The notes under the pieces: model-generated
The model's database searches: none
What the model was told of the DNA's origin: nothing
What the model saw: only the letters and a program-made list of their open reading frames with translations
DNA from: an uncultured Bacilli bacterium
GTDB lineage: Bacteria; Bacillota_I; Bacilli_A; RF39; UBA660
Length of the DNA stretch: 64,000 nt
Direction of reading: 5' to 3'
Assembly: GCA_934090735.1 (NCBI GenBank)
Contig: CAKOJR010000002.1
Span: 22,337 to 86,336, forward strand
In this document: positions 13,410 to 53,446 of the stretch, one piece after another
Layout: each line of letters begins with the position of its first letter
How positions within the stretch are numbered: the first letter of the stretch is position 1
Made by a program: the position numbers and the translations under genes

Positions 13410-13488
13410 TATTATCACACCTATTCTATAGATAATTTTACTAGAGTTATTTAAAAAAGTCCACTAAAAAAAGAGGCAAAGCTCTTTA

Positions 13489-13590: not shown

Positions 13591-13605
13591 AGTAACCTCC
13601 TTTAC

Positions 13606-13710: not shown

Positions 13711-13767
13711 AGTCTCCCTCCTTTTCATTACTCACTTTATTGTACGCGAAAAGTCTTAATTGTGTTC

Positions 13768-31181: not shown

Positions 31182-32601
<1,420 letters not shown>

Positions 32602-32610
32602 TCACTTCCT

Positions 32611-33997: not shown

Positions 33998-34041
33998 AAT
34001 GACTCCTTTCATAGATTATTATAAAACAAAAAGACCTTGTT

Positions 34042-34527: not shown

Positions 34528-34531
34528 AATA

Positions 34532-35431: not shown

Positions 35432-35432
35432 G

Positions 35433-37660: not shown

Positions 37661-38194
37661 TTAATTACTTCTTTCTATTATGTAGTTTGCTATATCTAGC
37701 CAGTTACTAAAAATTAAATGTTTGCTCTCTTTCTTTTCGTTTGTATACCAAATTGTTTGAATTCCATATTCTTTTACTTCATCAAGAATTTTTTCTTTAT
37801 CATCAATGAAGTATGATACATTTAATTCTTTAGCTGTTTTTCCCTTTTTATTTTGTTTATAATAGATTTCATCGTATGGTAAATCATATTTTTCTAGCAT
37901 TTCAACGCTTGCTTTTTCGTATTCGTAATTTAAATCATAACCACGAGCTGTAATAATAACAATCTTATAACCATGTTCTTTAAGCATGGTAAGAGCTTCT
38001 TTTACAAATGGTTTTAATGTAAGATTTTTTTGGATATTGTAAGCATGTACTTCTAGAAATGCTTTAACATCTTTATTTTTAATATCATCACAGTAGTCGT
38101 TAAATTTTAAGTTTGGGGCATATTTTTTTACATATTTTAAAGCTTCATCGTGAGTATTTGTGATTGTTTCATCTATATCTATACCAATTACCAT
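37661..38194 (-). CDS. HAD-superfamily hydrolase (NT5C-like nucleotidase?) inserted between ruvA and ruvB
   Basis: DIDETITN (DxDxT) at the N-terminus, ..ITAR.., ..YFIDDK... Substrate unknown. Confidence 0.55.
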   Translation of the reverse strand: MVIGIDIDETITNTHDEALKYVKKYAPNLKFNDYCDDIKNKDVKAFLEVHAYNIQKNLTLKPFVKEALTMLKEHGYKIVIITARGYDLNYEYEKASVEMLEKYDLPYDEIYYKQNKKGKTAKELNVSYFIDDKEKILDEVKEYGIQTIWYTNEKKESKHLIFSNWLDIANYIIERSN

Positions 38195-38197
38195 AGG

Positions 38198-38746
38198 TTA
38201 CCTCAACATTAATTTTAATGCTTCCTTTATTTGATTTTCGATGCTTAATTCAGAATCAACTTTTGGCAGAATCTTCTTGATGTCTGCACTTTTATATCCA
38301 AGGTTAAGTAGTACCTCAACAAGCTCTTCATTACTGCTTGTACTTGTAACTTCAATATTAATTTTTCCTTTTAAATCTAGAATAATTTGTCTTGCGAGTT
38401 TATCTCCAACTTTAGGAAATTTAGTTAAATAAAGGATATTTTCTCTATCTATTGCATCAATGATTCCACTTACTGAACCAGAGGCAAACATTGGTAAAGC
38501 TGTTTTTGGACCTAATCCTTTTACTGCTATTAGTCTTAAAAATAATTCTTTTTCATCCATACTTTTGAATCCATATAATGAGTTTTCGTTTTCTGTTATA
38601 TTTTGATAAGTATAGACTGTGTATTCTTTACCTATTTCATATGCGTATGGGTTTGCGACAAAGATAATATAACCAATGCCATTATTTTCAAGAACTATAT
38701 GATTACTTGTTAAATATTTTACGCTTCCTATTATGTATCCGAACAT
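38198..38746 (-). CDS. ruvA: Holliday junction DNA-binding protein RuvA
   Basis: 182 aa with an OB N-terminus, LYGF, and HhH region LIAVKGLGPKTA. Confidence 0.9.
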   Translation of the reverse strand: MFGYIIGSVKYLTSNHIVLENNGIGYIIFVANPYAYEIGKEYTVYTYQNITENENSLYGFKSMDEKELFLRLIAVKGLGPKTALPMFASGSVSGIIDAIDRENILYLTKFPKVGDKLARQIILDLKGKINIEVTSTSSNEELVEVLLNLGYKSADIKKILPKVDSELSIENQIKEALKLMLR

Positions 38747-38875
38747 TGTTTATCACCTTTTTAATTATAACATGATGCTTATCTTTAACCAAGAATATTT
38801 AGAAAGTTTTAAAAATTTATTAACAACTTTGAATACTTTTGAGTAAACTATAGTAGATACAAAGGAGGTATTAAC

Positions 38876-39073
38876 ATGTATTACTACGGATACAATGGTG
38901 GTTATAATGGAATGAATACTCCATATAACCCTTGTTACAATACTGGTTATGTTGGAAACACTAATGGTGGATACGGACTAGGTGCTGCTTTATGGATCGT
39001 ATTATTTATTCTTTTAGTAATTATTATTGGTGCTGGATGGTCTTGGGGAAACAACAATAACGGAAACATCTAA
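38876..39073 (+). CDS. small Gly/Asn/Tyr-rich protein with YjcZ-like TM core
   Basis: 65 aa, MYYYGYNGGYNG...GAALWIVLFILLVIIIGAGW..., with an AAGGAGG SD. Confidence 0.6.
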   Translation: MYYYGYNGGYNGMNTPYNPCYNTGYVGNTNGGYGLGAALWIVLFILLVIIIGAGWSWGNNNNGNI

Positions 39074-39099
39074 AAAAGGAAGCCTTCGTGGTTTCCTTT

Positions 39100-40818
39100 T
39101 TATATTTTATCTGGAACATCTATTGCTAGGATGTCTAGTAGATATTTATTTGTTTCATAAACTAATTTTGTTAAAACTAGTAAGCTTTCTTTTGTTTCTG
39201 CATCTTTTTCAGTAAGAACTTCGCAGTTAGAGTATAGAGCATTAAATGAGCTTGTTAATCTGTATAAGTACTCACATATTTCATTTAATGAGCGTGATGC
39301 GAAAGACTTTTCTAAAGTGTTTCTTAAGTTTATGATATTCATAATAATATTTCTTTCATATGCACTAGATATTTTATGATATGTTTTGTAGTCTGTATCG
39401 CATTTATTTAGTAAGGACTTCATTCTTACTGTGCTATAAAGTAAGTATGTACCAGTTTTACCATTAATATCACTAAATTTTACAGGATCAAAGATATAGT
39501 CACTTGTTCTATTTGGAAGAAGGTCGGCATATTTGATTGCAGCAATTGCTAGATTGCAAGCAAGCTCGTCTTTATCTTCTTCTTTAATATTATCTTTAAT
39601 TACTTTTCTAGTTTCTTCTTTAACTAAATCAATTAGTTTTCTTAGTGGCATTACTCCGCCATCTCTGGTCTTAAATGGTTTTCCATCAGGGCCATTCATT
39701 GTTCCAAAACCAAACCATTCTAAGCTTACATCTTTTGGTACTAAGTTAGTTTTGTACGCTGCTCTAAAGGCTTGAACAAAGTGTAGTTCTTGACGAATAT
39801 CTGTTAGATAGAAATATTTTTGAGCATTAAATCTTTTAATTCTTGAGTAAAGAGTAGCTAGCTCTGTTGTATCATATAATACTCCACCATTACTTTTAAT
39901 AAGAATAACTGGTGGCATTTCTTTTTTATCAGTTTCTTCTTTAACATCAATTATAGTTGCTCCATCGCTAATCTCGGTGTAGTTTCCTTTTTTAAAGTAA
40001 TCTAGAAGTTCTGGAATGTACTCGTCAGCATCTTTCTCACCTTCATATAAATCGAATGTTGCATTAAGCATATGATAGATATCTTTGATGTCATCAATAG
40101 CTATACTTGTAAAGGCTTCATATAGTTCATAGATGCCTTTTTCTTTACTTTGAAGTTTTCTAGTATATTCACGTGCTTCTTCCATGTAAGCTTCATCCTC
40201 TTTAGCTTTAGAGCTTGCTAATGGATAGATGTCGTATAAGTCTTCTAAACTTACTGGGCTTTCTTTTGGATAGCTTTCTAAATTAGGATTAAAGAAGTCT
40301 AAATCTGGATATCTATGTTTAATTTCACAAATGATAAGTCCCATGGGTCTACCCCAGTCACCAAAGTGAACATCACTGATAGTTTTGTAACCTACTGCTT
40401 CACATAGTCTTTTTAGAGCTTCACCAATATTTGGACTACGTAGGTGTCCAGCGTGAAGTGCTTTTGCCACATTAGCTCCACCATAATCTAAGAAGATAGT
40501 TTCGTCAGTATCAATTTTATATGTATTTATATCAAAATTATTATTTACTTCATTCATGTAATTAACAAGGAATTCATCACTTAAAGTTAAGTTTACGAAG
40601 CCATTTGCATTTGTTACATTTTTAAAGTTTTTGTTGTCTTTTAGTTTTTCAACTATTTCGTCTGCAATCATTACTGGGCTTTTATGATATACCCGTGCTA
40701 GATTGAAAGCTCCATTAAACTGGTAATCGCCTAAATCTGGTCTATTACTTACAGTTACCTTAGCGTTTTCATATCCTAAATCACTAAGGATTTTTTCAAT
40801 CTCTAATATTATATTCAT
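39100..40818 (-). CDS. argS: arginine--tRNA ligase
   Basis: 572 aa class I aaRS with a HIGH-type motif (ANVAKALHAGHLRS), the anticodon-binding DALR-type C-terminus, and family-typical length. Confidence 0.9.
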   Translation of the reverse strand: MNIILEIEKILSDLGYENAKVTVSNRPDLGDYQFNGAFNLARVYHKSPVMIADEIVEKLKDNKNFKNVTNANGFVNLTLSDEFLVNYMNEVNNNFDINTYKIDTDETIFLDYGGANVAKALHAGHLRSPNIGEALKRLCEAVGYKTISDVHFGDWGRPMGLIICEIKHRYPDLDFFNPNLESYPKESPVSLEDLYDIYPLASSKAKEDEAYMEEAREYTRKLQSKEKGIYELYEAFTSIAIDDIKDIYHMLNATFDLYEGEKDADEYIPELLDYFKKGNYTEISDGATIIDVKEETDKKEMPPVILIKSNGGVLYDTTELATLYSRIKRFNAQKYFYLTDIRQELHFVQAFRAAYKTNLVPKDVSLEWFGFGTMNGPDGKPFKTRDGGVMPLRKLIDLVKEETRKVIKDNIKEEDKDELACNLAIAAIKYADLLPNRTSDYIFDPVKFSDINGKTGTYLLYSTVRMKSLLNKCDTDYKTYHKISSAYERNIIMNIINLRNTLEKSFASRSLNEICEYLYRLTSSFNALYSNCEVLTEKDAETKESLLVLTKLVYETNKYLLDILAIDVPDKI

Positions 40819-40936
40819 AAAAATCCCTTCCTTAAAGATATGATATCATACTTTTATTATAAAGCAAACCAAAAGTGTGTTTTTTTCTAGATTTTTCGCA
40901 GATTTTAAAAGTCTGGAAGCTAGGTAAATAAAGGGA

Positions 40937-40965
40937 TTGCAATGGTTTTATGAATGTACTATTAT
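40937..40965 (+). promoter_or_regulatory. sigma-A type promoter of candidate toxin mRNA
   Basis: TTGCAA-17 nt-TATTAT. Confidence 0.5.
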
Positions 40966-40973
40966 ACCTACTT

Positions 40974-40998
40974 GAAGAGTACTATGTTAGGCTTCTCC
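40974..40998 (+). repeat. left arm of 25-nt inverted repeat (5' UTR of toxin mRNA)
   Basis: GAAGAGTACTATGTTAGGCTTCTCC. Its reverse complement matches 41176-41188 (13/13) and 41199-41209 (11/11), split by a 10-nt insertion (41189-41198) in place of a single A. Confidence 0.8.
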
Positions 40999-41025
40999 CC
41001 TCTTAAAAAGAAGGGAGTGATGTAT

Positions 41026-41115
41026 ATGAAACAGTTAAAATCTATTTTAGATAAGTTAATGTCCATAATCATCCTTTTAATTATTTTAAAAGTTATAGTT
41101 ATAATTTTTAGATAA
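41026..41115 (+). CDS. 29-aa hydrophobic peptide, candidate type I toxin
   Basis: MKQLKSILDKLMSIIILLIILKVIVIIFR. The GAAGGGAG SD lies 8 nt upstream and can pair with the upstream CTCCCCTC (a possible SD-sequestering hairpin). Confidence 0.45.
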   Translation: MKQLKSILDKLMSIIILLIILKVIVIIFR

Positions 41116-41211
41116 AAAAAAGAAGCTACCTAACATTTTAATGCCTTGTTTAAGTAGCTTCATCAAGAAATACTTGGAGAAGCCTAACTTTCAGGGGTTA
41201 GTACTCTTCCT
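41114..41211 (-). ncRNA. candidate cis-antisense antitoxin sRNA (~100 nt)
   Basis: - strand promoter TTGTAT(41247-41242)-18 nt-TATAAT(41223-41218). - strand terminator GAAGCTAC..GTAGCTTC (41161-41122) plus T8 (41121-41114), which abuts the peptide stop codon. Confidence 0.4.
41176..41209 (+). repeat. right arm of inverted repeat (3' UTR of toxin mRNA / 5' end of antisense RNA)
   Basis: GGAGAAGCCTAAC-tttcaggggt-TAGTACTCTTC. Confidence 0.8.
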
Positions 41212-41259
41212 AAATTTATTATACTACAAAGTATTTATTTTATACAAGTACTTTTCTTT

Positions 41260-42138
41260 TTAGTCAATGTTTATAAGTTCATACTCTCTAGATCCTATGC
41301 CACGTTTTTCAGCTTCTTCTATAGTATGTAATCCGTTTCGGCTATTTACTCTTTCCATAAAGTGTTCTTTTCCTGGATCTTCTGAATTTCTTACTAAATC
41401 AATAGATGCTTCATCGATAGCAGCTGGATCTAAACTTGCTAGAATACCTATATCTTTTAAACAAGGGTCTTCAGCAACAGCACAGCAGTCACAGTCAACG
41501 CTCATGTTACATAGTACATTAATAAATGCCATGTTACCATTAAAATAATTTACAACACTTGATGCAGCATCAACCATTGATTCTAGAAATAAATTTTGTT
41601 CTGGAACATTATCCCATAGTTCTTCTTGTTTAGTTGTTTTGCCAGCAGTATGAATATAAGCTTTACCAGATGAAGAAGCCACACCGATTGATAATTGTTT
41701 TAAGGCTCCACCGTAGCCACCCATAGGATGACCTTTAAAGTGTGATAAAACAAGCATACTATCGTACTTTTCAATATCTTTACCTACATAATTTTTATGA
41801 ATTACTTTACCATTTGGTATGTTTAGTTCAGTGTCACTTTCAGCATCCATAATGTCAACGTCAAAATACTTATTCCATCCATGTTTTTCCATTAAAGCTT
41901 TATGTTTTTCTGTAGTGTTTCTTGCACCATTATATGCAGTATTGCATTCTACGACTGTCCCATGAACGTGATTAATTAATTCACGAACAAATTCTGGTTT
42001 TAAATAGTTTTGATTTCCGTCTTCTCCAGAATGAAGTTTAACTGCTACGTTACCTTTTAATTCTTTGCCTAACTCTTCGTAGATTTTAACTAAACTTTCT
42101 GGACTTAGGTTTTTTGTAAACAATACTTTTGATTTCAT
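41260..42138 (-). CDS. DUF362-domain protein (putative Fe-S binding)
   Basis: 292 aa. The N-terminal pattern LKGNVAVKLHSGE, the Cys cluster CNMSVDCDCCAV, and the overall length match my memory of DUF362 proteins. Confidence 0.55.
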   Translation of the reverse strand: MKSKVLFTKNLSPESLVKIYEELGKELKGNVAVKLHSGEDGNQNYLKPEFVRELINHVHGTVVECNTAYNGARNTTEKHKALMEKHGWNKYFDVDIMDAESDTELNIPNGKVIHKNYVGKDIEKYDSMLVLSHFKGHPMGGYGGALKQLSIGVASSSGKAYIHTAGKTTKQEELWDNVPEQNLFLESMVDAASSVVNYFNGNMAFINVLCNMSVDCDCCAVAEDPCLKDIGILASLDPAAIDEASIDLVRNSEDPGKEHFMERVNSRNGLHTIEEAEKRGIGSREYELINID

Positions 42139-42142
42139 ATAA

Positions 42143-43174
42143 TCACCTTTCTAATTTTTTTATTAATTTTTTTACCATTTTAGGATTTTTATAATTTGTT
42201 TTGTCTCTTTTTAAGTTTGTGATGTCTTCACCATAGGCTAGTCCAACACCTCGTTCAGCAGTAATGCCTACTGCACCATAATATAGGTAATATGTGTCAT
42301 CTAAATAGATCATACTTGATCGGTAAATACCACTATTGTCCCAGTTAAGCGTTCCTCTTTCTGGTTCTAATATTTTGATTGCATCTTTAAAGTCTGTTCC
42401 ATTTTCACTTATGGTATAGTATAGGTCCATTTTATTATGATGTTTCCATTTATCATAAGCTACGGTTATCATTTCATAACCTTTTTCCGTTTTGATAACA
42501 TCTAAATGCCATGTATCTAGCTTGGTAGGATATCCAAATTTTATTTTGCTTTTATCGGTCCACTTCATTCCATCCTTGCTTTCAGCATAGGTTATCGTGT
42601 TACATATGTTAACGTACCACATTTTGTATATTCCATTATCATAAATGATTGCAGGACTAACATAATCTTTTTTATGTCTGTTTTTAGAAAATAAAACTTT
42701 CTCCTTATCTGTCCATGTTATACCATCACTGGTCTCCCTTTTATAAATTGTAACACTACCAGTAACATCATCAACATAGCGCCAATAGCAAATTATAATA
42801 TCCTTATCTTTATTATACACTATATGAGCGTCAGAATTATATCTTTTTTTCTTATATTTATTTTTAACTTCATCTAGACTTTTATTCTGGCCTTTTGGAG
42901 CATACCAATTTATTAGGTCGTTAGATACTGCTATATGAGGATTTTCGTAGCCAGAATTACCTCCTGGGTAAGGGGTGTAACTCATCCAGTATTTATAACC
43001 GTTCCACTTTTTATCGAAAGTAATTACTTTTGGATGATATGCCTCATTATCTCCATAAGAACTAATTATTTCAAGTTTATATGTTCTTTTTTCATGGTCA
43101 AAAATTAGGCCATAGCCTAGTACTAATATTAGAATAATAATTATAATAATATAATATTTTACAAGCCTTCTCAT
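42143..43174 (-). CDS. membrane-anchored beta-propeller-like protein (possible glycoside-hydrolase-like fold)
   Basis: N-terminal TM, W/Y/D-rich repeats, and the motif YHPKV..WNGYKYWMSYTPYP..ENPHIAVSND..W. Translationally coupled to DUF362 (the SD overlaps the stop). Confidence 0.35.
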   Translation of the reverse strand: MRRLVKYYIIIIIILILVLGYGLIFDHEKRTYKLEIISSYGDNEAYHPKVITFDKKWNGYKYWMSYTPYPGGNSGYENPHIAVSNDLINWYAPKGQNKSLDEVKNKYKKKRYNSDAHIVYNKDKDIIICYWRYVDDVTGSVTIYKRETSDGITWTDKEKVLFSKNRHKKDYVSPAIIYDNGIYKMWYVNICNTITYAESKDGMKWTDKSKIKFGYPTKLDTWHLDVIKTEKGYEMITVAYDKWKHHNKMDLYYTISENGTDFKDAIKILEPERGTLNWDNSGIYRSSMIYLDDTYYLYYGAVGITAERGVGLAYGEDITNLKRDKTNYKNPKMVKKLIKKLER

Positions 43175-43222
43175 TTTTTCACCATGTTTTTCTTCGCTTA
43201 AGATTATAGCACATAAGATATT

Positions 43223-43250
43223 AAAACAAAAGCACTTCTCGAGTGCTTTT
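43223..43250 (-). terminator. rho-independent terminator ending the rSAM operon
   Basis: AAAAGCACT-cgaga-AGTGCTTTT hairpin followed by a T-rich run on the - strand. Confidence 0.65.
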
Positions 43251-43262
43251 TAATAATTATAT

Positions 43263-44273
43263 TTAATTATCTATTATCCATTCGTTAAGTGGTTCTATTT
43301 GCGTACCACAATATCCACATTTTCCTTTTGTAGCGTCTACTGATGCACCACAATTTTGACATTTAATGAAATTTATACCATTTTTTAGTTCAAAAATGTC
43401 CATGTTTACTCTTTTCATATTGTAAGTATCAACTTTATATTCAGATTTTATGTTTCCATTATTGTATCTTACTATTCTCACATATGCTTTTACTTCAACA
43501 TTTAATATGGAGTTATTATTGTTTTCAGTAAACTCGTCATAATCTAAGATATCATAGTCGATGATATCTTCCTGATTGTAGTATTTTTTTGCCACTTCGT
43601 AATTTAGATTATTAAAGAATTTCTTTTTATCAATTTTGGTTCTTTCCCAAAAGGCTTCTTGAACGGCTTTTTGATTATCTTTATATTTTTTTATTGGTCC
43701 TAATACTATGTAACCATCAATTACATAAAAGAAGTAGTATAGAATTGCAGATAAGATAAAACCATAAATAAAGATTTTAGAAATATCGTAGGCGTTAAAG
43801 GTTCTTGAAGTTGACCTTATAAAGCTTTCTGCTAATATTAAGCTGAATATTAAATCGATAATACCAGTTATAATACGGTATTTATTACTTCTTAGAATTC
43901 GGTCATAGTGGTACTTACTTCCTAAATCTTTTTCAGTGTAGTCTAAATTATAATATGTTCCACAGTATGGACAACCATCAATAAAATTTTGGAGATTAGC
44001 TTGCATACCACAGTTAGGACATGTATATGTTTTATCTTCATCTACTGTTATGAATGTGTATTCTATTCTTGAATCAAACTGGCTTTCTGTTTTTACTAGT
44101 TTATCCTTAATGTAATATTCTTTTTGACATCTAATTCCGTTTCTTATATTATCGTTGTGACTGTTATTAGTGTTTTTTTCTAAAATTTTATCGCCAACGA
44201 TGTATTTTGTTTTGATGTTTATGCCATACTTTTTTAATTTATTGTTTTGACTATTATCAGAAATTAAAGGCAT
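43263..44273 (-). CDS. membrane protein with two Cys4 zinc ribbons flanking two TM helices
   Basis: CPNCG..CPYCG and CQNCG..CGYCG, with TM helices at about residues 145-190. Its SD overlaps the stop of the upstream gene. Confidence 0.6.
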   Translation of the reverse strand: MPLISDNSQNNKLKKYGINIKTKYIVGDKILEKNTNNSHNDNIRNGIRCQKEYYIKDKLVKTESQFDSRIEYTFITVDEDKTYTCPNCGMQANLQNFIDGCPYCGTYYNLDYTEKDLGSKYHYDRILRSNKYRIITGIIDLIFSLILAESFIRSTSRTFNAYDISKIFIYGFILSAILYYFFYVIDGYIVLGPIKKYKDNQKAVQEAFWERTKIDKKKFFNNLNYEVAKKYYNQEDIIDYDILDYDEFTENNNNSILNVEVKAYVRIVRYNNGNIKSEYKVDTYNMKRVNMDIFELKNGINFIKCQNCGASVDATKGKCGYCGTQIEPLNEWIIDN

Positions 44274-44284
44274 AACTGCACTTC

Positions 44285-44659
44285 CTATCTATTATTATTG
44301 TTGTTATTGTTATTGTTATTATTATTTGATGATGAGCCCCCATGGTAACCGCCACCTCCAGAGCCTCTTACAACAGGATTATAATGAGGTATAACTGAAA
44401 AATAAGTATTAGTTAATTTAACCCCATCAATTGTGCTGTCGGTGCATATAGCAGGCATTATTTCTGGAGTTATTCCATCTTGATAATTTAATTTAAGTGT
44501 TAAGCCATTTTTGTTTCCAATAACAATTCCATTTTCATTGTTAGCAAGATAATTATATATTTTATTTAGATTTTCTTCTGATAGTTGATAATATTTCGTT
44601 AAATCGATGCATCTTTTATATCTTATTAACTCTTCATAGGTTTCTGGTTCTTTATTCAT
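44285..44659 (-). CDS. 124-aa soluble protein with Gly-rich/poly-Asn C-terminal tail (candidate rSAM substrate or partner)
   Basis: Ends ..NPVVRGSGGGGYHGGSSSNNNNNNNNNNNNR. Its ATG overlaps the rSAM TGA (ATGA at 44659-44656). Confidence 0.6.
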   Translation of the reverse strand: MNKEPETYEELIRYKRCIDLTKYYQLSEENLNKIYNYLANNENGIVIGNKNGLTLKLNYQDGITPEIMPAICTDSTIDGVKLTNTYFSVIPHYNPVVRGSGGGGYHGGSSSNNNNNNNNNNNNR

Positions 44660-46392
44660 TTTTTAAACTCCTTATCTAAATAGTAGAATTCTATATTTTG
44701 AAACGGTAGATTTATTGCTTCGATGTGATAATAAGCGTTATTTTTTTGCTTTAGGTAATGATAATCTCTTAGTGATGAAGTTGTGAAAAATATATTATTT
44801 GGGTTTTCTTCAGAATAGTATTTCTTATATTCTGCAAGCATATTTGTTAAGTTAATTACATAATAATCTTTTGAAACGTTATCATCTAATATACCCTTAT
44901 ATATTTGATTAGTTGCTAAGTGTCTTTGCTTGGTGCGTCCTTCATCTCCATAAGTAACTAGATTACCACTAAGAAGCATTATGTATAATGAGTTATTTTC
45001 TTGGTAGTCACAAACTTCTTCAATTAAATGTTTTTTCATCAGCAATTCTACTTTATTTTCTGGTGTTATATAAATTATCTCTCTAGATTTTTTAGTTATT
45101 TGAGATGCTAGTTTGTATTCTTTTTCATCAATTTTTAGAATGAAGCTGTCATTATCATATATATATTTAAGATTAGCATCTTTACTTATTATTTCTTCTA
45201 AAGATGGATAATCATTTTTGTTTCTAGTTGGAACATATTTGTCTTTATCATCAAGTCGCATATTTTTTACATATTCGTAAACAAATTCATCATTATATTC
45301 ATCTTTTTCATAACCACGGTCTTGATACATTTGTTGTTGTAGTTTGCAGGTGTAACTTTTATTTGTATGGTATGTATTTTTTACAAATGGACAACCAGTT
45401 TTGCATAAATAAAGGTATCCACATTTGGTACATTCGTCGTTAAGTGGTTCTTTATTGTGATTTAGAAAAATTTTATTCTTGGCAGTTGTTAAAATTTCTT
45501 CGACTGAATTATCATAGATATTGCCATAATAGTAGTCAGGATTTTTTTGGCCTCTTACGCAGGAATATATGTCACCATTTTTTTCAAGAAGGAAAAACTT
45601 CTCACCACAGTTATCACAGTTAGTGCAATATTCCGGGCCGAATTCGTCAAACCATGGTCCGTTTACGCCTTGATCTAGGTCTGTGCCATCAAACTCTTCA
45701 TGCATTTTTTTATAAAGCTCTAATTGTTCTTCTTCAGTAAGATGGTGTAGCATACCATTTGAATTATAATCAAAACCAATCATAAAATTAAAATCGTTCA
45801 TATCAAGACAAGTATTTTCATGTAAAAATTTTATATCTTTAATCATATCGTCAAGATGAGCAAAATGTTCTTTAAAAATTGTTGCAGATACTTTCTTTTT
45901 GTTAGGAATATCTTTTAATAATTCAATATTTTTTAATATTTTATCTAATGTTTTTTGATTTCCTTTTGTTACTCTATATTTGTCGTGAAGTATTAGGGGC
46001 AAATCTAAACTGCCTGATATAGATACATTAAACTCTTTTATTGTTTCTATGTGTTCTTCTAAGTTATACATGTTAGTTTTAATGTGAGGACTACTAATTT
46101 TAAATCCAGCATTAGTAATTATATCTTTATTTACATTGTAGTAGTTGTCTATATATTTAATTAATTCATGAAATTCATTTTTAGATAATGTTGTAACTTC
46201 TCCACCGTGTAAGGAAATATTAAAAGGAATTACGTTGCTTTCCCGAAATTTATCAATAGCAAATTTAAGAGTATTAAGTGAGTTTTTGTCTGTTTTTTCA
46301 TCTATCGTATTATCTTCTAAATAGCAATACTTGCATCCCATATTGCAGGCCATTGTTGGAACATATAGTAAATGTATAAATTTATAATTCAT
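44656..46392 (-). CDS. radical SAM enzyme with SPASM-like auxiliary Cys clusters and ~200-aa C-terminal extension
   Basis: CNMGCKYC (CX3CX2C) at residues 16-23. Later clusters are CTNCDNCG..YSC and CTKCGYLYLCKTGCPF. 578 aa. Confidence 0.8.
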   Translation of the reverse strand: MNYKFIHLLYVPTMACNMGCKYCYLEDNTIDEKTDKNSLNTLKFAIDKFRESNVIPFNISLHGGEVTTLSKNEFHELIKYIDNYYNVNKDIITNAGFKISSPHIKTNMYNLEEHIETIKEFNVSISGSLDLPLILHDKYRVTKGNQKTLDKILKNIELLKDIPNKKKVSATIFKEHFAHLDDMIKDIKFLHENTCLDMNDFNFMIGFDYNSNGMLHHLTEEEQLELYKKMHEEFDGTDLDQGVNGPWFDEFGPEYCTNCDNCGEKFFLLEKNGDIYSCVRGQKNPDYYYGNIYDNSVEEILTTAKNKIFLNHNKEPLNDECTKCGYLYLCKTGCPFVKNTYHTNKSYTCKLQQQMYQDRGYEKDEYNDEFVYEYVKNMRLDDKDKYVPTRNKNDYPSLEEIISKDANLKYIYDNDSFILKIDEKEYKLASQITKKSREIIYITPENKVELLMKKHLIEEVCDYQENNSLYIMLLSGNLVTYGDEGRTKQRHLATNQIYKGILDDNVSKDYYVINLTNMLAEYKKYYSEENPNNIFFTTSSLRDYHYLKQKNNAYYHIEAINLPFQNIEFYYLDKEFKK

Positions 46393-46400
46393 GTTGCACC

Positions 46401-48047
46401 TCAGTATCTAGGGTATACTTTTGTAATATTTGTTGGGCTTTCTTTAAAAGCACGCTCGTTTACATATGTTATTGATGGGATTGATATATTGTATAAACTA
46501 TAGCATCTTCTAAAAGCAGATGAGCCTATTTCTTGTAAATTACTTCTTTCACTTATAATAACTTCAGAAAGGCTTGAAGCTTCATAAAAAGCATGAGCTC
46601 CTATTCTTTTTACTTTGTCTGGAATTGTTATACTTTTTAGTGAACTGCAATATTCAAAGGTGTCCCCTCTTATTTCTGTTAAGTTTTCTGACAATTTAAT
46701 GGTTTCTAATGAAGTGGCTCCGTAAAAAGATTCACCGCCTAAGAATGTTAAAGTATCTGGTAACTCAATTTCTTTTATTTTGCTAGCATTATAAAATGCT
46801 CCACCGCCAAGATATTCTAACTCTTTTGGTATATTTACAGAAACTAAATTTTTGCAGTTTTTAAATGCTTGCCCTCTTATTTCTTTGATGGTATCTGGGA
46901 GTTTAATACTTTCTAGAAATATCATGTTTGAAAAAGTATTACCTCTTAAGCTGATAACTTTTTTATTGTTATGAGTTTCTGGAATTGTTGCAGTTTTGAA
47001 GTTTGTTAAACCATATGCGTAGAATCTAACACCATAACCATCTTCAGTTTTTTCGTAAAGAATTTTTGGCGTAGAAAATATTATTAGTGGGAAGATAATT
47101 GCTATTAGGATGCTAATTACAAAAGATAGCCTGCTATTATCAGTTGTTAAATTACTTTTTTCTAGCATTATTATATTTGATATTTTTTCTTCTGGTCTAG
47201 CTTTTACTTGCTTTATAAGATATTTCATGAAGTTATATTTTCTTGAAAGTTTAAAGAAGATAAAGAGAAGGATAATTCCAATAATATATGTGCTTAAAGG
47301 AAAGTGAAAAAAGATTATTGTAATGTAGAAACAAAGTAATACAGAAAAAATAATATTTAATACTTTTTTCCTTTTTAAAACTTCATTTGGTATTAATTTA
47401 TTTGGCTCTTTGACTCCTAAATTGGCCATTTGTCTGCGTATAAATTCTTCAACGACCTCTTCTTCTGATAAAAGATACATTGGGTCAAAGTCAGTTATCT
47501 TTTTTATTGTTTGAGATAAATCTTTAGCAACAGCATTTGATAATGTCTTTTGGGCATCAAATGGTTCCCCGCAGTTTGTACAAAAATGATCAGTTATAAG
47601 TAGCGTTGTACCGCATTTGCTACACTTTAATTCTAAATTTTGTGGTTTTGTTTGAGCAGCTAGTTCGGCAAATTTTATAGCTTCTCTCTTTTTAAGTTTT
47701 CCAGATATGAAATAACAAATTGGAACAATAATAAAAGCTCCTATAAATACACTTATAAAATCTACTATAGCGATGCTTGTCGTAACAAAAAAGTCAAAAA
47801 ATAGTAATATTGCAGCTCTTATTGCAAACAAGATCCAGAAAAGTTTCTTACTATTTACCGGCGAAAATGCTTTAGCTATTGGTAGTAAGACAAAAATTGA
47901 CATATGTATAGAAACAAATGCTTCAATAAATAATGCAGATTTTATATCAAAATCGCCATTACTAGGCATGGTATAGGCATAAACTAGACTTGGATAAAGT
48001 AATAAACTATATATCAACATTATTTTAACAATTTTTTTAAACTTCAT
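46401..48047 (-). CDS. polytopic membrane protein with internal zinc ribbon and C-terminal BspA-type leucine-rich repeats
   Basis: Several TM helices, CSKCG..CTNCG, and repeats of the type LESIKLPDTIKEIRGQAFKNCKNLVSVNIP (LRR_5-like). Confidence 0.65.
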   Translation of the reverse strand: MKFKKIVKIMLIYSLLLYPSLVYAYTMPSNGDFDIKSALFIEAFVSIHMSIFVLLPIAKAFSPVNSKKLFWILFAIRAAILLFFDFFVTTSIAIVDFISVFIGAFIIVPICYFISGKLKKREAIKFAELAAQTKPQNLELKCSKCGTTLLITDHFCTNCGEPFDAQKTLSNAVAKDLSQTIKKITDFDPMYLLSEEEVVEEFIRRQMANLGVKEPNKLIPNEVLKRKKVLNIIFSVLLCFYITIIFFHFPLSTYIIGIILLFIFFKLSRKYNFMKYLIKQVKARPEEKISNIIMLEKSNLTTDNSRLSFVISILIAIIFPLIIFSTPKILYEKTEDGYGVRFYAYGLTNFKTATIPETHNNKKVISLRGNTFSNMIFLESIKLPDTIKEIRGQAFKNCKNLVSVNIPKELEYLGGGAFYNASKIKEIELPDTLTFLGGESFYGATSLETIKLSENLTEIRGDTFEYCSSLKSITIPDKVKRIGAHAFYEASSLSEVIISERSNLQEIGSSAFRRCYSLYNISIPSITYVNERAFKESPTNITKVYPRY

Positions 48048-48136: not shown

Positions 48137-48161
48137 AAAAAAGATAGGTGTTAAACCTATC
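48137..48161 (-). terminator. rho-independent terminator after surface paralog P2
   Basis: GATAGGT-ttaac-ACCTATC followed by T6 on the - strand. Confidence 0.7.
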
Positions 48162-50076
48162 AATTAACAATGTAAGGGTCTTCTGAAGTGCCTGTGCCAC
48201 CTGAAATTGTTGTTGAGGATATAAGACTTATCGAAGGTCGAAGTCCAGTACCATCTTCAATGTCGCCTCGCACATTAAAATTATTAAATTCACCACTAGC
48301 CTTGACACCATAAATGAGAGAAATATAACCATCGTTATTTTGAGGTGACAAAGTCCACCAAGATGACCCACTTGCATTTTCGAGTAAGTAATAATTAGGA
48401 TTAAATCCTCCATTAAATCCACCTGCAAAAGAAATTTCATCAGCTGTTAATAATCCTATTTTATAAGTTAAATTACCATTACCATTTGTCGTATCACTTA
48501 CAGTAAATTTAGATAACTTGCCACCATTGTTGTCATTAGGACATTTTAGTGTTGGCTGTTTAGTTGAATCTATTCTATTATATGCACCATAATAGGTAAT
48601 ATTTTTGGCATAACCAAGCCCACTTGAAATACTTTTATCATTACACCATATTGTATCTGCTAATTTACTTTCATATTCAGTTAAATTATTTTTATACCAT
48701 GTTTCTAAATTTGTTAGTATTGTACTTTTATTTGTATTTGCATGCGTGCTTGCATAATCACTCGATCCGACCGTTCCATACATAAATCCAATGCTTGCAT
48801 TATCATAATAGTTATCATTAAATGCGGTTGTGTATGAACTTCCAGAATATCTTGCAAAGGTTGCTGTATTACTATTATTAGCAGATGAACATGGGTTAGA
48901 AACTTTATTTATATTATCATTATGTAAAATTAATTTTATTGAACCATCACCAGTTATTCTAACTATTCTCCAGCATTTACCCGCAAACTGCACATAATTA
49001 TTTTTTACAGCACCCCTAAAATAATACGACGTTCCATAATCATCTTCTGTGCTTGCTAAAATTGCTTCAGTTGTATTTTTATTTGATGATATTATTTTAT
49101 AAGTAAAACTATCTTTAGTTGCACTGACTATATAATATACCCTGCCTAAATTAGTTGCAGGTTGCATTGTACCTGCGGTACTTGATCCAGCATAATATAA
49201 AGAACTATCCGTCAAATATTTACCAACTAAACTAGAGTACGAATTTGCATATGTATCACTAGTTACTGCTGTTCCAGTTAAATTAAATTTTGTTCCATTT
49301 GCTGTCCATCCCGTTCCATACGTAATATAATGATTTTGAGCACTCGTTGATACACTTACTGTTTTACTCTCAGCGTCATCTAAAGTATAGGCACTCACTT
49401 CTTTACCAGGTACTGTGATTGCTTGTTTAACTTCATTGTTTTCACTCAATGTTGCAATAAATGTTCCACTATTTGCTTCATACCATCCTGATGGAGCTTG
49501 GGTAGCAAGGTTGCCTTTTTCATCTGTAATTTCAACATGAGCATTGAATGTCGCTCCTTGATTACTGTTTTGGTCTATGTCTTTTAATGGATAATATATT
49601 TTTAACTGATATGTATGAACTGCACTATCTGCTTTTAGAAAGTTACCTTTACCTAGTTCTAGTGAAGTACCTGTTAAATTAGTTTTTGATATAGTTGGCA
49701 CTACTTTCCCATTATCACTTGTATTAATACTTACTAATTCATATTGTAATGGATCAGAAGTAATAAATGTATTAGAGTCTACTACTAAAGTAAGTTTATA
49801 ATACATCTCAGCATCTGTATTATTATTACCAGTTACAGTTATTATTTTAGTAGCCCATACTTCATCTCTTGGGTATACTCCACTTAAACTTATTGTATTA
49901 CCACCATTATAGTTTATTTTCATAGTACCACCTTCAGCGGTTACTGTTGTTTCATCTTCCGAAGTTATACCTGAGGTAAAGTAAGCATAAGAAGCCCCTA
50001 CTGCTAGTACTATACATAATAGCATTACATAAACCATAACTTTTTTCTGTTTCTTTTGGATATCTTCTAGGTTCAT
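48160..50076 (-). CDS. large secreted protein, paralog P2
   Basis: 638 aa from the ATG at 50076 (MNLEDIQKKQKK..LAVGASYAYFTS). It shares the CWRIVRITGDGSIKLILHNDNINK block and the GTGTSEDPYIVN tail. The track's extra 16 codons run into the promoter. Confidence 0.8.
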   Translation of the reverse strand: MNLEDIQKKQKKVMVYVMLLCIVLAVGASYAYFTSGITSEDETTVTAEGGTMKINYNGGNTISLSGVYPRDEVWATKIITVTGNNNTDAEMYYKLTLVVDSNTFITSDPLQYELVSINTSDNGKVVPTISKTNLTGTSLELGKGNFLKADSAVHTYQLKIYYPLKDIDQNSNQGATFNAHVEITDEKGNLATQAPSGWYEANSGTFIATLSENNEVKQAITVPGKEVSAYTLDDAESKTVSVSTSAQNHYITYGTGWTANGTKFNLTGTAVTSDTYANSYSSLVGKYLTDSSLYYAGSSTAGTMQPATNLGRVYYIVSATKDSFTYKIISSNKNTTEAILASTEDDYGTSYYFRGAVKNNYVQFAGKCWRIVRITGDGSIKLILHNDNINKVSNPCSSANNSNTATFARYSGSSYTTAFNDNYYDNASIGFMYGTVGSSDYASTHANTNKSTILTNLETWYKNNLTEYESKLADTIWCNDKSISSGLGYAKNITYYGAYNRIDSTKQPTLKCPNDNNGGKLSKFTVSDTTNGNGNLTYKIGLLTADEISFAGGFNGGFNPNYYLLENASGSSWWTLSPQNNDGYISLIYGVKASGEFNNFNVRGDIEDGTGLRPSISLISSTTISGGTGTSEDPYIVN

Positions 50077-50101
50077 ATTATATCTACTTCTTTCTATTAT
50101 T

Positions 50102-50129
50102 AGTATATAATACACCCCCCCCATGTCAA
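50102..50129 (-). promoter_or_regulatory. promoter of P2 with G8 tract in the spacer
   Basis: - strand TTGACA(50129-50124)-16 nt-TATACT(50107-50102). The spacer contains G8 (C8 on the + strand, 50115-50122). Confidence 0.55.
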
Positions 50130-50337: not shown

Positions 50338-50796
50338 CTATTTGTCTGTTGAACCAAATCCACCAGTACGTTTACCAGTTGCGTTATCATTATCAGTAAT
50401 TAAATATTTTTGAAAGATAACTTGACCGATAACGTCGCCTTTTTTAATAGTAATATCTTCATTAAAGAAGTTATAATAAGCAAACATAAAGTGTCCATCG
50501 TTATCTGGGTTATTATAGTAATCACTGTCAATTACACCAATACTATTTGCCATTACTAGTCCTTTTTTAAATGGGTTTGAACTTCTATTAGCAAGCATGA
50601 ACCATTCGTCACTTTGGCAGTATGCTTTTAGTCCTGTTGGTATAAGGGTCGGCTTGTCTCCTAATTTAAATGGATGAATTACAACGTCTTCAGCAGCTTC
50701 TACGTCATAACCGGCGGAATTTGCTGTTTTTCTAATTGGAATATTTATATTTTTATCTTCCCAGCCTTTTGCTACTTCAAAACCTCTTAACTTCAT
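50338..50796 (-). CDS. dut: dUTP diphosphatase (trimeric dUTPase family)
   Basis: SAGYDV, GVIDSDYYN, RTGGFGSTDK. Confidence 0.85.
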   Translation of the reverse strand: MKLRGFEVAKGWEDKNINIPIRKTANSAGYDVEAAEDVVIHPFKLGDKPTLIPTGLKAYCQSDEWFMLANRSSNPFKKGLVMANSIGVIDSDYYNNPDNDGHFMFAYYNFFNEDITIKKGDVIGQVIFQKYLITDNDNATGKRTGGFGSTDK

Positions 50797-51293
50797 AAAT
50801 TTTTCTCCTCTACTACTTTGCCTTTTTTCATTGTTTTTTTTACATTAATAACTCTTTGATTGCTTGAGCCAGAATATAAAAGTTTGGGATTTTTATTTTC
50901 TTCTTCAAACTGGCCATCTACAATGAAATCGGCGTATTTTGTTATTTCTTTATCCATAACATAATCTTCAAAATTAAAGCCGGTCCATATCCAAATGCTT
51001 TTATCAGGATATTTTTCTTTAAAGGCTTTTGCTAGCTTTGTAGTGGCTTCAATATTTTTATTATGAAGTGGCTCACCACCTAAAATAGATAGACCTACTA
51101 TGTAACTGTTACTTGCAAGTGATAATATTTCATTTATAGTATCGTCAGTGAATTCTTTGCCACCATTAAAGTCATGGGTTTCTGGGTTAAAACAATTTTT
51201 ACAGTTAAATGTACAACCTTGCATGAATATGGAAACTCTAACGCCAGGGCCATTAGAGATATCCATTTTTCTTATTTTATTAAACCTAGCCAT
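50793..51293 (-). CDS. nrdG: anaerobic ribonucleoside-triphosphate reductase activating protein
   Basis: GPGVRVSIFMQGCTFNCKNCFNPET radical-SAM motif. It overlaps the nrdD stop. Confidence 0.9.
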   Translation of the reverse strand: MARFNKIRKMDISNGPGVRVSIFMQGCTFNCKNCFNPETHDFNGGKEFTDDTINEILSLASNSYIVGLSILGGEPLHNKNIEATTKLAKAFKEKYPDKSIWIWTGFNFEDYVMDKEITKYADFIVDGQFEEENKNPKLLYSGSSNQRVINVKKTMKKGKVVEEKNL

Positions 51294-53446
51294 TATGCAT
51301 CCTTATTGTCTAAGTGTAAAACTCTTTCTTTAATTTCTTGAGTTCGTCCTTTATTCCAGAATTTGGTACCAATGTAACCACATGTTCTTCTGGCTACATT
51401 AAGTGTGTCATGGTCTTTGTTTCCACAGTTTGGGCAGTACCATTCTAAATCATCATTAATTAAGATTTCTCCATCATATCCACATTTTTGGCAGTAGTCA
51501 CTTTTAGTGTTTAATTCAGCATACATAATATTGTCATAAATGAATTTAATAACTTCGATAACAGCTGGAATATTATTTTGTAAGTTAGGTGTTTCAATGT
51601 ATGAGATTGCTCCACCTGGGGATAATTTTTGGAATTCACTTTCAAGTGATAATTTTGTAAAGGCATCTATTTCTTCAAATACTGGTACATGATAAGAGTT
51701 AGTAATATAGTTGCGGTCAGTGATTCCTTTAATAATGCCAAAACGTTCTTTTAAGCATTTAGCAAATTTATATGTAGTGCTTTCAATTGGAGTTCCGTAA
51801 ACACTGTAGTCCATGTTTTCAGCTTCTTTCCACTCTTTACATTTATCATTTAATTTTTGCATTACTTCTAAGGCAAATTCTTTTCCTTTTCCATTATCTG
51901 TGTGTGAGTGTCCTGTCATAAATTTAACACATTCATATAGGCCGGCATAACCTAAACTGATTGTTGAGTATCCGCCATGTAATAGTTCATGAATGCTTTC
52001 ACCTTTACCTAATCTAGCAAGAGCACCATGTTGCCATAATATAGGAGCTACATCACTTGTTGCTTTAGCTAGACGTTTATGTCTAATTTGAAGAGCTCTA
52101 TGACATAGTTCTAGTCTTTCATCAAAGATTTTCCAGAATAGTTCTTCGTCTTTGTCTGCGGATAGTGCCACGTCAACTAAATTGATAGTAACAACACCTT
52201 GATTAAATCTACCATAATATTTTGGTTTACCTTCTTTATCTAAATATGGTGTTAAGAAGCTTCTGCATCCCATGCATGGATAGCACTGGCCATCACCATT
52301 TTTATCAACTTTAAGCTTCTTCATCATTTTTTCTGAAATATAATCTGGTACCATTCTTTTTGCAGTACATTTAGCGGCTAACTCTGTTAGGTAATAGTAT
52401 TTACTATTTTCATGAATGTTATCTTCTTCTAATACGTATAGAAGTTTTGGAAATGCTGGAGTGATATAAACGCCTTTTTCATTTTTCATACCTTCAATTC
52501 TTTGATTTAAGAATTCTTCAATAATCATTGCTAGTTCTTCTTTATATTCTTTTGTTTCACCTAAATACATACAAACACTTAGAAATGGTGCTTGACCATT
52601 AGTGGTTGTCATTGAGTTAACTTGATATTGGAATGTTTGAACGCCAGCTGTTATTTCAGTTTTTAAATCTTCTTTTGCGTATTTTTCACAATCTTCTTTT
52701 GAGAATTTTCTATTTTTATAAATTTTTAAGTAGCGGTTATAACTATCTCTAACAAATGGGGCTAAGTGAGTAAGAGTTATTGTGCATCCACCATATTGGC
52801 TAGAAGATACTGCAGTTATAATTTGTGTTGCAATAGTTACTGCTGTTAAGAATTTATGTGGCTTTTCAATCATCACGCCATTGATATTTGTTCCATTTTG
52901 AAGCATGTCTTCTAAATTGATAAGGTCACAGTTGTGAAGTGCATTTTGGGCAAAATAATCTGCATCATGGAAGTGAATAATTCCTGCGTCGTGAGCTTCA
53001 ACAATTTCTTCTGGTAATAAGAATCTTCTTGTAATATCTGTACTTGTAATACCAGCTAGATAGTCTCTTTGGGTTGTTACGATTTTAGCATTTTTATTTG
53101 AGTTTTCAGTGTTCCAGTATTCATTTTCACCGTCGATAAGTTCTTTAATTGCTAAATCAGTTGTATTACTTCTTCTAACTAGTTCTCTAGTGTATCGATA
53201 TGTAATATACTTTTTAGCTAGTTGATATTTACCAATACTCATAAGTTTCATTTCAATAATATCTTGAATGTCTTCTACTAGAATTCTTTTCTTACCTAAA
53301 GACTCAATATATTTAATAATATTTTTTATTTGAGTGTTGCTTGCTTGCTCGCTTTCCTCAACTTCTTTGTTAGCTTTTAAAATAGCTTCTTCAATTTTTT
53401 CTGGACAATAATCCACCATATGTCCGTCTCGTTTAATTACTTTCAT
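51293..53446 (-). CDS. nrdD: anaerobic ribonucleoside-triphosphate reductase
   Basis: 717 aa with an ATP-cone N-terminus, a C-terminal zinc ribbon CQKCG..CPNCG, and the glycyl-radical motif RRTCGYIG. Confidence 0.93.
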   Translation of the reverse strand: MKVIKRDGHMVDYCPEKIEEAILKANKEVEESEQASNTQIKNIIKYIESLGKKRILVEDIQDIIEMKLMSIGKYQLAKKYITYRYTRELVRRSNTTDLAIKELIDGENEYWNTENSNKNAKIVTTQRDYLAGITSTDITRRFLLPEEIVEAHDAGIIHFHDADYFAQNALHNCDLINLEDMLQNGTNINGVMIEKPHKFLTAVTIATQIITAVSSSQYGGCTITLTHLAPFVRDSYNRYLKIYKNRKFSKEDCEKYAKEDLKTEITAGVQTFQYQVNSMTTTNGQAPFLSVCMYLGETKEYKEELAMIIEEFLNQRIEGMKNEKGVYITPAFPKLLYVLEEDNIHENSKYYYLTELAAKCTAKRMVPDYISEKMMKKLKVDKNGDGQCYPCMGCRSFLTPYLDKEGKPKYYGRFNQGVVTINLVDVALSADKDEELFWKIFDERLELCHRALQIRHKRLAKATSDVAPILWQHGALARLGKGESIHELLHGGYSTISLGYAGLYECVKFMTGHSHTDNGKGKEFALEVMQKLNDKCKEWKEAENMDYSVYGTPIESTTYKFAKCLKERFGIIKGITDRNYITNSYHVPVFEEIDAFTKLSLESEFQKLSPGGAISYIETPNLQNNIPAVIEVIKFIYDNIMYAELNTKSDYCQKCGYDGEILINDDLEWYCPNCGNKDHDTLNVARRTCGYIGTKFWNKGRTQEIKERVLHLDNKDA

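Follow-up and report, generated by a model that had tools for sequence, protein, structure and literature searches.

Introduction

Radical S-adenosylmethionine (SAM) enzymes that carry a SPASM domain have been a repeated source of new peptide chemistry. The anaerobic sulfatase-maturating enzymes (anSMEs; AtsB/ChuR, TIGR03942, PDB entries 4K36-4K39) take a protein as their direct substrate and remove a hydrogen from a side-chain β-carbon, while PapB, QhpD (TIGR03906) and NxxcB form thioethers following abstraction of the β or γ hydrogen of Asp, Glu or Asn. The GRRM and cyclophane-forming enzymes (GrrM/OscB, TIGR04261; XyeB; FxsB) work on co-encoded Gly-rich precursors, and Asn can be cross-linked at its β-carbon by the cyclophane formers; MftC and PqqE carry out their modification at the C-terminal end of a polypeptide encoded alongside them. 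Here we analyse a four-gene cassette, A-B-C-D, in a 64,000-nucleotide stretch of contig CAKOJR010000002.1 from an uncultured Bacilli bacterium (hereafter the window), in which gene B encodes a radical SAM/SPASM enzyme and gene C a small protein that ends in a run of asparagines. Comparison of this locus with its relatives makes it rather probable, in our judgement, that the four genes form a single operon for a protein-maturation system, in which B would mature the Asn-rich C-terminal tail of C and the products of A and D would be lineage-specific membrane partners.

Comparison of B with described radical SAM/SPASM enzymes

A first-pass annotation, made from the sequence of the window, had recognised B as a radical SAM enzyme with a SPASM domain and had concluded that no known family fits the operon, and both statements hold. 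The Radical_SAM, Fer4_12 and SPASM models all scored above their Pfam cut-offs, and the scores place B in the radical SAM superfamily (PF04055, 42.2 bits, cut-off 29.5) and in the SPASM subfamily (PF13186, 29.0 bits, cut-off 21.5; TIGR04085, 43.9 bits, cut-off 27). Apart from a generic SPASM-domain model, no family in NCBIfam r20 passed its cut-off with B; the best full-length matches were anSME (95 bits, cut-off 349), DynA (89, cut-off 450) and PapB (NF047865; 78.5, cut-off 340).

The first ~360 residues of B find their best sequence match in the anSMEs, with which B shares a radical SAM core followed by a full SPASM domain, eight cysteines of the same spacing and the lack of an N-terminal RiPP recognition element (RRE; RiPP, a peptide that is made ribosomally and modified post-translationally), since B begins directly with the radical SAM motif. 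We take the spacing of the eight cysteines to be the pattern of the two auxiliary [4Fe-4S] clusters of anSME. The closest solved relative of B is anSMEcpe (4K36-39), with which the family profile aligns end to end (E 3e-17); a single-sequence search of the PDB with B was empty, and anSME was reached by the family profile alone. B nevertheless falls outside the anSME family by score (95 bits against 349.45 for TIGR03942; 63.6 against 484 for NF010308), and differs from it in carrying an additional ~220-amino-acid (aa) C-terminal domain and in having as its neighbour a small poly-Asn-tailed protein, not a sulfatase. In the profile alignment, the position matching what we take to be the catalytic Asp277 of anSMEcpe, directly after the third AuxI Cys (presumably the site given by Goldman et al. 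2013), is V, H or P in the B family, followed by an invariant R and Q.

The other described systems are further removed. The score of B against PapB, together with a C tail that contains no Cys, leaves the pair outside the ranthipeptides, and B and C differ from PapB, QhpD and NxxcB with their substrates in that C is no Cys-rich peptide but a folded protein that bears a homopolymeric run of Asn, and in that RRE, protease and exporter are all missing. The GRRM system, which the first-pass annotation had cited among enzymes that modify a co-encoded peptide or protein, was not matched by B and C: B reached 57 bits against a TIGR04261 cut-off of 310, over residues 12-203 only, and C matched no precursor family. 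MftC and PqqE require a separate or fused RRE (MftB, PqqD) and act on short precursors at Val-Tyr or Glu...Tyr sites, and B scored 35 bits against the mycofactocin radical SAM model (cut-off 265). The usual RiPP architecture is likewise absent, as B has no N-terminal RRE and its putative substrates are a 124-aa protein with a folded domain or, in a phage relative described below, a 368-aa tail fibre; no peptidase or ABC transporter was found among the four genes or their recurrent neighbours. No description of the system was found in NCBIfam r20, Pfam, PADLOC, PHROGs or the literature searched.

By sequence comparison, then, the system would work like known radical SAM/SPASM pairs of maturase and substrate, with a catalytic half closest to anSME. 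We propose an 'Asn-tail' radical SAM/SPASM maturase family, recognised by an anSME-like region joined to the ~220-aa domain and by an adjacent Asn-tailed product, and the window contains each of these, the product being C with its N12-R ending. What appears new is the orphan C-terminal domain, the signature of a homopolymeric Asn tail, the range of putative protein substrates, a phage fibre included, and the two zinc-ribbon membrane partners.

The C-terminal domain of B

The C-terminal extension of B had been left unassigned in the first-pass annotation, and neither Pfam nor NCBIfam gave a domain match past ~residue 360. The family alignment shows the invariants YGDExRTKxxH, TT, HY and NAFYHxQxxNLPF in this region. 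With residues ~361-578 as the query, 102 matches were obtained among 1.84 billion representative proteins, many of them fragments, and the full-length ones were all ~588-616 aa, the domain following the radical SAM/SPASM region at a constant position; the domain is thus confined to the B family. An AlphaFold model of the domain (predicted local distance difference test score, pLDDT, 86) was mostly β, and Foldseek searches of the PDB and BFVD with it returned nothing at E≤0.001, the top-ranked entries being generic β-sandwiches with TM scores of at most 0.31. The domain is, on present evidence, an orphan. Two unusual family members were seen: P0196 (477 aa), in which an A-like leucine-rich repeat (LRR) segment is joined with part of a B-family sequence that has a deletion within it, probably a chimera that arose in assembly or gene calling, and P0132 (419 aa), which has a (GS)n-GYSYD insertion within the C-terminal domain.

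Protein C and its asparagine tail

Protein C has the features first noted for it, namely a length of 124 aa and a Gly/Asn-rich tail (GSGGGGYHGGSSS-N12-R); it contains no hydrophobic segment and is a soluble protein. The N12 run is the sole Asn run of at least 6 residues in the six frames of the window, and is written in mixed AAT and AAC codons. Nearly all complete homologues of C end in ...IPHYxP-SSx-x-YS-GGSSS-N(10-17) (alignment, n=77), with a single terminal Arg in 67 of the 77; two of the exceptions are truncated at contig ends. Asn runs of at least 8 residues occurred in 74 of the 1105 open reading frames (ORFs) of the loci, and all 74 were C. The most conserved part of C is the N-terminal 26 residues, which include Cys17.

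No match to C was found in Pfam, NCBIfam, PADLOC or PHROGs, and the 59 relatives obtained from 5.8 billion proteins carried no name beyond 'hypothetical protein'. The SSS-N12 segment (window 44291-44340, residues ~107-123) resembles the engineered SSS-N10 linker of pMAL vectors; only a single residue follows the Asn run, so the C tail, were it a linker, would link nothing.

Conservation of the cassette

A scan of one genome per species gave 247 relatives of B, of which the best 80 loci (68-80% identity) were retained. Among these 80 species-level genomes, tblastn found A in 79, C in 77 and D in 74, and the order A-B-C-D on one strand was constant wherever the genes were present. None of the genes that flank the cassette in the window occurred in the 80 loci, bar weak partial matches to a 654-aa protein in two, and when all ORFs of the loci were clustered the next commonest neighbour was present in 12 of the 80. 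A sulfatase was found neither in the cassette nor among the recurrent neighbour clusters, in a search limited to the loci.

The hosts are mostly uncultured gut metagenome-assembled genomes named as Bacilli, Tenericutes, Mycoplasma sp. CAG or Clostridium sp. CAG, names that we take to fit RF39-type lineages. The cassette is also carried by Lachnospiraceae, including the isolate Waltera hominis CLA-AA-H183 (locus L080), and it is common to Bacilli and Clostridia, with B 67-69% identical. The GC content of the cassette tracks that of its host, being 0.25-0.28 in the uncultured gut group and 0.45-0.49 in Lachnospiraceae, which argues against a recent import and for residence in the two lineages. 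In the Lachnospiraceae the Asn tail is kept at a cassette GC of 45-49%.

Of 2.9 million IMG/VR contigs, one carries the cassette, and viral-contig scans with P0171 and P0136 gave no matches. The single contig with the full A-B-C-D set (IMGVR_UViG_3300029664_000120, 31865-44900; GC 0.44, Lachnospiraceae-like) has the cassette near its end, and this part may be host flank within a prophage call.

Asn-tailed neighbours of divergent B-family members

The first-pass annotation had named as grounds for rejecting its proposal that homologues of B might routinely occur without C, A or D neighbours; for a C-type neighbour this is not so. When a neighbour was defined as a same-strand adjacent gene whose product has an Asn run of at least 3 residues (usually 10-17) within a few residues of its C-terminus, 98 of the 108 family loci had such a gene; among other ORFs, taken as background, the figure was 18 in 5950. 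Five of the ten loci without one lie at contig ends. Divergent members are 27-41% identical to B in the C-terminal domain. Neither A nor D was detected in the divergent clades examined, whereas each of them, apart from a short contig of 3.3 kb, had an Asn-tailed neighbour.

Two of the divergent loci, L082 and L083, are metagenomic with 60-62% GC, and their B homologues are 38% identical to B, with the tailed gene directly downstream; the tails (...QRSS-N17-G and ...QRNS-N14-G, respectively) use mixed AAC and AAT codons. Directly upstream of both B homologues (L082, 4510-4980; L083, 2115-2615) lies a conserved protein of ~156-166 aa with two predicted transmembrane (TM) segments and no Pfam match, which occupies the place of A and D. 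At a further high-GC metagenomic locus (L165, P0129), the downstream 120-aa protein ends in ...GTWT-N10-G. As the tail is kept both at 45-49% and at 60-62% GC, the Asn run is not an artefact of base composition.

A three-gene arrangement, in which the tailed protein is followed by a protein of 140-210 aa and then by the B-family enzyme, was found at L164, L166, L168 and L097. L164 lies in a Mu-like phage structural module, where a 173-aa protein with the tail ...STGGGGGGSGPNNNF (tail segment ...GGGGGGSGPNNNF) precedes a 200-aa protein and the B homologue. At L166 a collagen-like G-x-y protein ending in ...GYNNNNNGNNH comes before a related 142-aa protein and the B homologue, and the neighbours at L168 and L097 end in ...GGGGHSGNNNSKCSG and ...RNNNGNNNNSCSGGW. 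The L097 contig is metagenomic and phage-like, with 31% GC; in its 3656-13728 region the B-family gene stands amid large proteins of 869, 444, 490 and 439 aa that have no family assignment and give weak matches to internal-head-protein and tape-measure PHROGs, and the ORF ending in RNNNGNNNNSCSGGW, of 84 aa, is two genes upstream of the B-family gene.

Phage tail fibres are known to mature through chaperones or by autoproteolysis; we know of no radical SAM step in their maturation, and none was found in the literature searched. In Campylobacter phage CAM-P21 (L167), the annotated tail fibre (PF12571, E 4e-40; 368 aa) ends in ...APSGSTNNNNY; next come, in this order, a protein of 211 aa in the position of a Tfa chaperone and a B-family enzyme of 585 aa in which all the family motifs are present. 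This layout of fibre gene, Tfa-position gene and B-family gene resembles the known Tfa modules (Mu S/U; CJIE1 H-fibre and chaperone), and similar fibre/Tfa-like three-gene sets are those of the metagenomic contigs L097, L164, L166 and L168; the cassette of the window differs in having no fibre, Tfa or other phage genes. CAM-P21 is an isolated, Mu-like phage (MW462221.2, 26302-29810) in which the B-family gene is annotated 'hypothetical protein' and lies ahead of the sheath and tube genes; another family member, on a 192-kb 'plasmid' of Campylobacter coli (NZ_CP082878.1), is annotated 'radical SAM protein'.

All that the partners have in common is an Asn run close to the C-terminus, usually preceded by a stretch rich in Gly and Ser. 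A hidden Markov model (HMM) of the N-terminal domain of C, searched against ORFs of the divergent loci, matched the L165 partner marginally (E 0.044) and the L082, L083 and phage partners not at all, and an 'IDG...PHY' recognition motif that had seemed by eye to be shared was withdrawn, being unsupported by this HMM. The protein in the Tfa position of the phage loci showed no relationship with C or with D in hhalign. Two of the phage-like tails contain N-x-x-C (NNSC at L097, NSKC at L168); Cys is absent from most tails, among them all those of the RF39-like and high-GC groups and that of CAM-P21.

The membrane proteins A and D

Protein A was described at first pass as a polytopic membrane protein with an internal Cys4 ribbon and a BspA-type LRR ectodomain, and D as carrying two Cys4 ribbons that flank two TM helices; both descriptions were borne out. 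In A, Pfam gave LRR_5 (E 1e-53) and Zn_Ribbon_1, with the four cysteines at C142/145/156/159. Its layout, as predicted from hydropathy and the positive-inside rule, is a signal-peptide-like N-terminus, three TM segments, a cytoplasmic loop, three further TM segments and an outside LRR region; the K/R-rich loop (residues 113-225) carries the ribbon, and the ectodomain spans residues ~326-548. The LRR region is the most conserved part of A, and the ribbon cysteines are retained in 88% of 81 sequences. Such conservation of the LRR fits a fixed ligand better than an adhesin in an arms race.

The ribbons of D are at C85/88/101/104 and C305/308/319/322, on either side of a TM hairpin (134-191); a cytoplasmic location is predicted for the two termini, and mean column identity is 75%. 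Of its 825 relatives in 5.8 billion proteins, the named ones among the matches listed are all 'hypothetical protein'. Pfam and NCBIfam gave nothing beyond zinc ribbons for D, the PHROGs matches were zinc-ribbon noise, and sequence-profile searches of the PDB returned nothing meaningful. In Foldseek searches with a model of D (pLDDT 70), the top matches were NTF2-like, weak and not significant (E 0.06-1); the C-terminal cytoplasmic domain is possibly NTF2-like. The zinc-ribbon domains of A and D could hold B or C at the membrane, and it is from the topology of these two proteins that we infer an envelope-associated role for the system.

Gene layout, signals and neighbouring genes

The four co-oriented minus-strand ORFs occupy 43263-48047 of the window (Table 1), and the junction sizes and bracketing terminators given in the first-pass annotation were confirmed. 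A and B are separated by 8 nt, where a GAGGTG, read from the sequence, overlaps the TGA stop of A; B and C meet in an ATGA overlap, by which the start of C is translationally coupled to B; and C and D are 11 nt apart. Both hairpin and T-run terminators were recovered by a scan and can be read in the sequence. GC content is ~30% across the entire window.

Table 1. Features of the A-B-C-D cassette and its boundaries, in window positions
Feature	Position	Strand	Remarks
Gene A	46401-48047	-	548 aa
Gene B	44656-46392	-	578 aa
Gene C	44285-44659	-	124 aa
Gene D	43263-44273	-	336 aa
CX3CX2C cluster motif of B, CNMGCKYC (C16, C20, C23)	46324..46347	-	Family-invariant
SPASM region of B	45346..45627	-	Eight family-invariant Cys: C256, C262, C278, C321, C324, C330, C334, C349
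Family-specific C-terminal domain of B (residues ~355-578)	44659..45330	-	~220 aa; proposed substrate-docking domain
N-terminal domain of C	within 44285..44659	-	Conserved, invariant Cys17; C is the proposed substrate
Tail of C: Gly/Ser-rich linker, residues 99-111 (GSGGGGYHGGSSS), then N12, then Arg	44288..44365	-	Proposed modification site
N12 run, residues 112-123	44291-44326	-	Part of C tail
Terminal Arg of C	44288-44290	-	Part of C tail
Promoter-like extended -10, TGTTATAAT	48090-48082	-	5' of A; consensus match, putative function
Second TATAAT	48078-48073	-	5' of A; consensus match, putative function
Shine-Dalgarno AAGGTGG	48058-48052	-	5' of A
Intrinsic-terminator-like hairpin and T run (GATAGGTttaacACCTATC TTTTTT)	48143..48161	-	Ends upstream gene; 5' boundary of unit
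Intrinsic-terminator-like hairpin and T run (AAAAGCACTcgagaAGTGCTTTT GTTTT)	43228..43250	-	Closes unit

Upstream of the cassette, the 654-aa protein (48160-50124, minus strand) has a single TM segment, at its N-terminus, and was matched by no family of Pfam, NCBIfam or PADLOC, and its weak partial relatives in two of the 80 loci place it outside the cassette. Downstream, a 343-aa protein (42143-43174, minus strand) that has a TM segment at its N-terminus and matches no family is followed by a DUF362 protein (41260-42138, minus strand; E 2e-46); this pair has its own extended -10 (TGTGCTATAAT) just past the cassette terminator and is not conserved alongside the cassette. Three overlapping or abutting minus-strand genes at 50338-53446 appear, by their translations, to encode a dUTPase-like protein, NrdG (the anaerobic ribonucleotide reductase activase, itself a radical SAM protein) and NrdD, a gene set that fits an anaerobic host.

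Discussion

The proposal in the first-pass annotation that B modifies C, or else a domain of A or D, is supported by the comparisons above and can be narrowed to C, a likelier target than A or D because these two are undetected in the divergent clades where the Asn-tailed neighbour persists. Judged by these gene neighbourhoods, the core pair is the enzyme family with its Asn-tailed neighbour, A and D being additions peculiar to the RF39-like/Lachnospiraceae clade. In the mechanism that we envisage, B would recognise the co-encoded C and perform radical chemistry on its flexible tail, (Gly/Ser)n-Asn10-17-Arg. Recognition would probably be through the family-specific C-terminal domain, which in an enzyme without an N-terminal RRE is the natural candidate for docking, and the flexible Gly/Ser linker would feed the Asn run into the active site. 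The most likely first step would be abstraction of a hydrogen atom from the side-chain Cβ of Asn or from a backbone carbon, with a cross-link or a two-electron oxidation, relayed via the SPASM clusters, to follow. Abstraction at Asn Cβ followed by cross-linking or oxidation is put forward as the most likely chemistry by analogy with abstraction from Ser or Cys by anSME, from Asp by PapB, and at Asn Cβ by NxxcB and the cyclophane formers. The matured C might then be used, anchored or exported by A, with its extracellular LRR, and D, with its zinc ribbons and possibly NTF2-like domain.

Some particular chemistries can be weighed further. A Cys-Asn thioether is one concrete possibility, suggested by the N-x-x-C in the L097 and L168 tails and by the invariant Cys17 of the cellular C proteins, although the lack of Cys in most tails weighs against it as a general product. 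A three-residue cyclophane was rejected as the general mechanism, as several tails (L082, L083) have no aromatic residue near the Asn run, and a YydG-type epimerase was rejected as the leading mechanism, the family alignment showing no invariant non-cluster Cys in B.

Several observations weigh against maturation of the tail. The case for B acting on C is one of guilt by association; Asn runs are good inert flexible linkers too, and in the PDB profile search with C the matches were just to the SSS-N10 linker of pMAL maltose-binding protein (MBP) fusions. Neither the residue ahead of the Asn run (S, T, P, Y, G, R) nor what comes after it (R, G, F, H, Y, SCSG(GW)) is constant, and no defined motif of the kind known from radical SAM substrates is apparent; the absence of an invariant non-cluster Cys tells against one form of maturation, YydG-type epimerisation. 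A CJIE1-like Campylobacter H-fibre with its chaperone has been found to be a working receptor-binding protein in Pseudomonas and E. coli without a radical SAM enzyme (PMC7882524), and any modification of the fibre may therefore be dispensable for binding. In phage fibres a modification, if there is one, may serve to adjust stability or specificity without being indispensable.

The linker-like character of poly-Asn leads to a different explanation, by which C would be an adaptor, scaffold or carrier with the Asn run as an inert tether, and B would act on a cytoplasmic domain of A or D, on another protein, or on a small molecule or lipid at the membrane. The action of poly-Asn as a neutral linker, as in the MBP fusions, is in keeping with this, as is the concentration of conservation in the N-terminal 26 residues of C, which is what a binding module would show; so are the extreme conservation of D (75% column identity) and the near-constancy of A and D in the RF39-like/Lachnospiraceae clade (79 and 74 of 80). 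We nonetheless regard it as unlikely, given that a linker at the extreme C-terminus with one residue beyond it links nothing, that the tail is retained at 60% GC, and that where A and D go undetected the tail persists on unrelated N-terminal domains, among them a tail fibre and a collagen-like protein. The presence of B relatives within phage structural modules, together with flanks that are not conserved, the sharing of the cassette by Bacilli and Clostridia (B 67-69% identical) and a weak pVip match, could instead point to an anti-phage defence or toxin/immunity module, a mobile island that varies in context, with B as a radical SAM effector, further effectors in the membrane and C as a regulator or decoy derived from the tip of a phage tail fibre. 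This seems to us quite improbable: PADLOC assigned no defence system, the PADLOC match to B is limited to the generic radical SAM core (residues 13-106, 34 bits), no PADLOC model matches A or C, and D has a weak Cas12f match (17 bits) over a zinc ribbon; the cassette contains no nuclease, NTPase or kinase, occurs on one of the 2.9 million viral contigs and follows the GC of each host; and strong purifying selection on B across 247 species, with the LRR as the most conserved part of A, is unlike arms-race genes.

The similarity of B to anSME, its best curated and structural match, and the ~30% GC of the genome would also allow B to be an ordinary anSME or other known SPASM maturase with its substrate elsewhere, its neighbours being coincidental and the Asn run a product of AT-rich low-complexity drift. 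Little or no weight can be given to this, as B falls far short of TIGR03942 (95 bits, cut-off 349), has V, H or P at the position aligned with the presumed catalytic Asp277 and carries the extra 220-aa domain; neither the cassette nor any recurrent neighbour cluster of the 80 loci supplies a sulfatase-like protein, and the synteny and tail statistics exclude coincidence. Family scores, synteny and tail counts together effectively refute it. We thus return to maturation of the C tail by B as the preferred reading. Its wider form, an undescribed radical SAM modification of oligo-Asn C-terminal protein tails with docking by the orphan domain, in which the product would be used by membrane proteins A and D in bacteria and would finish the fibre in phages, is put forward tentatively, at slightly less than an even chance, with iterative Cβ cross-linking, dehydrogenation or another change to Asn as possible chemistries.

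The enzyme family, which has no described function or curated model, is present in 247 species-representative genomes and has phage and high-GC branches, and its putative substrate signature, a C-terminal Asn run, is unusually simple and easily recognised. Both the cultured isolate W. hominis CLA-AA-H183 and the isolated phage CAM-P21 are testable carriers. If the Asn run is the site of action, the chemistry has a substantial chance of being new. Were the tail indeed modified, the family would provide a new chemistry of Asn together with a new mode of protein-substrate recognition, an enzymatic maturation step for phage tail fibres that would be relevant to host-range engineering, and a function for a cassette that is near-ubiquitous in poorly understood, largely uncultured bacteria of the human and animal gut.

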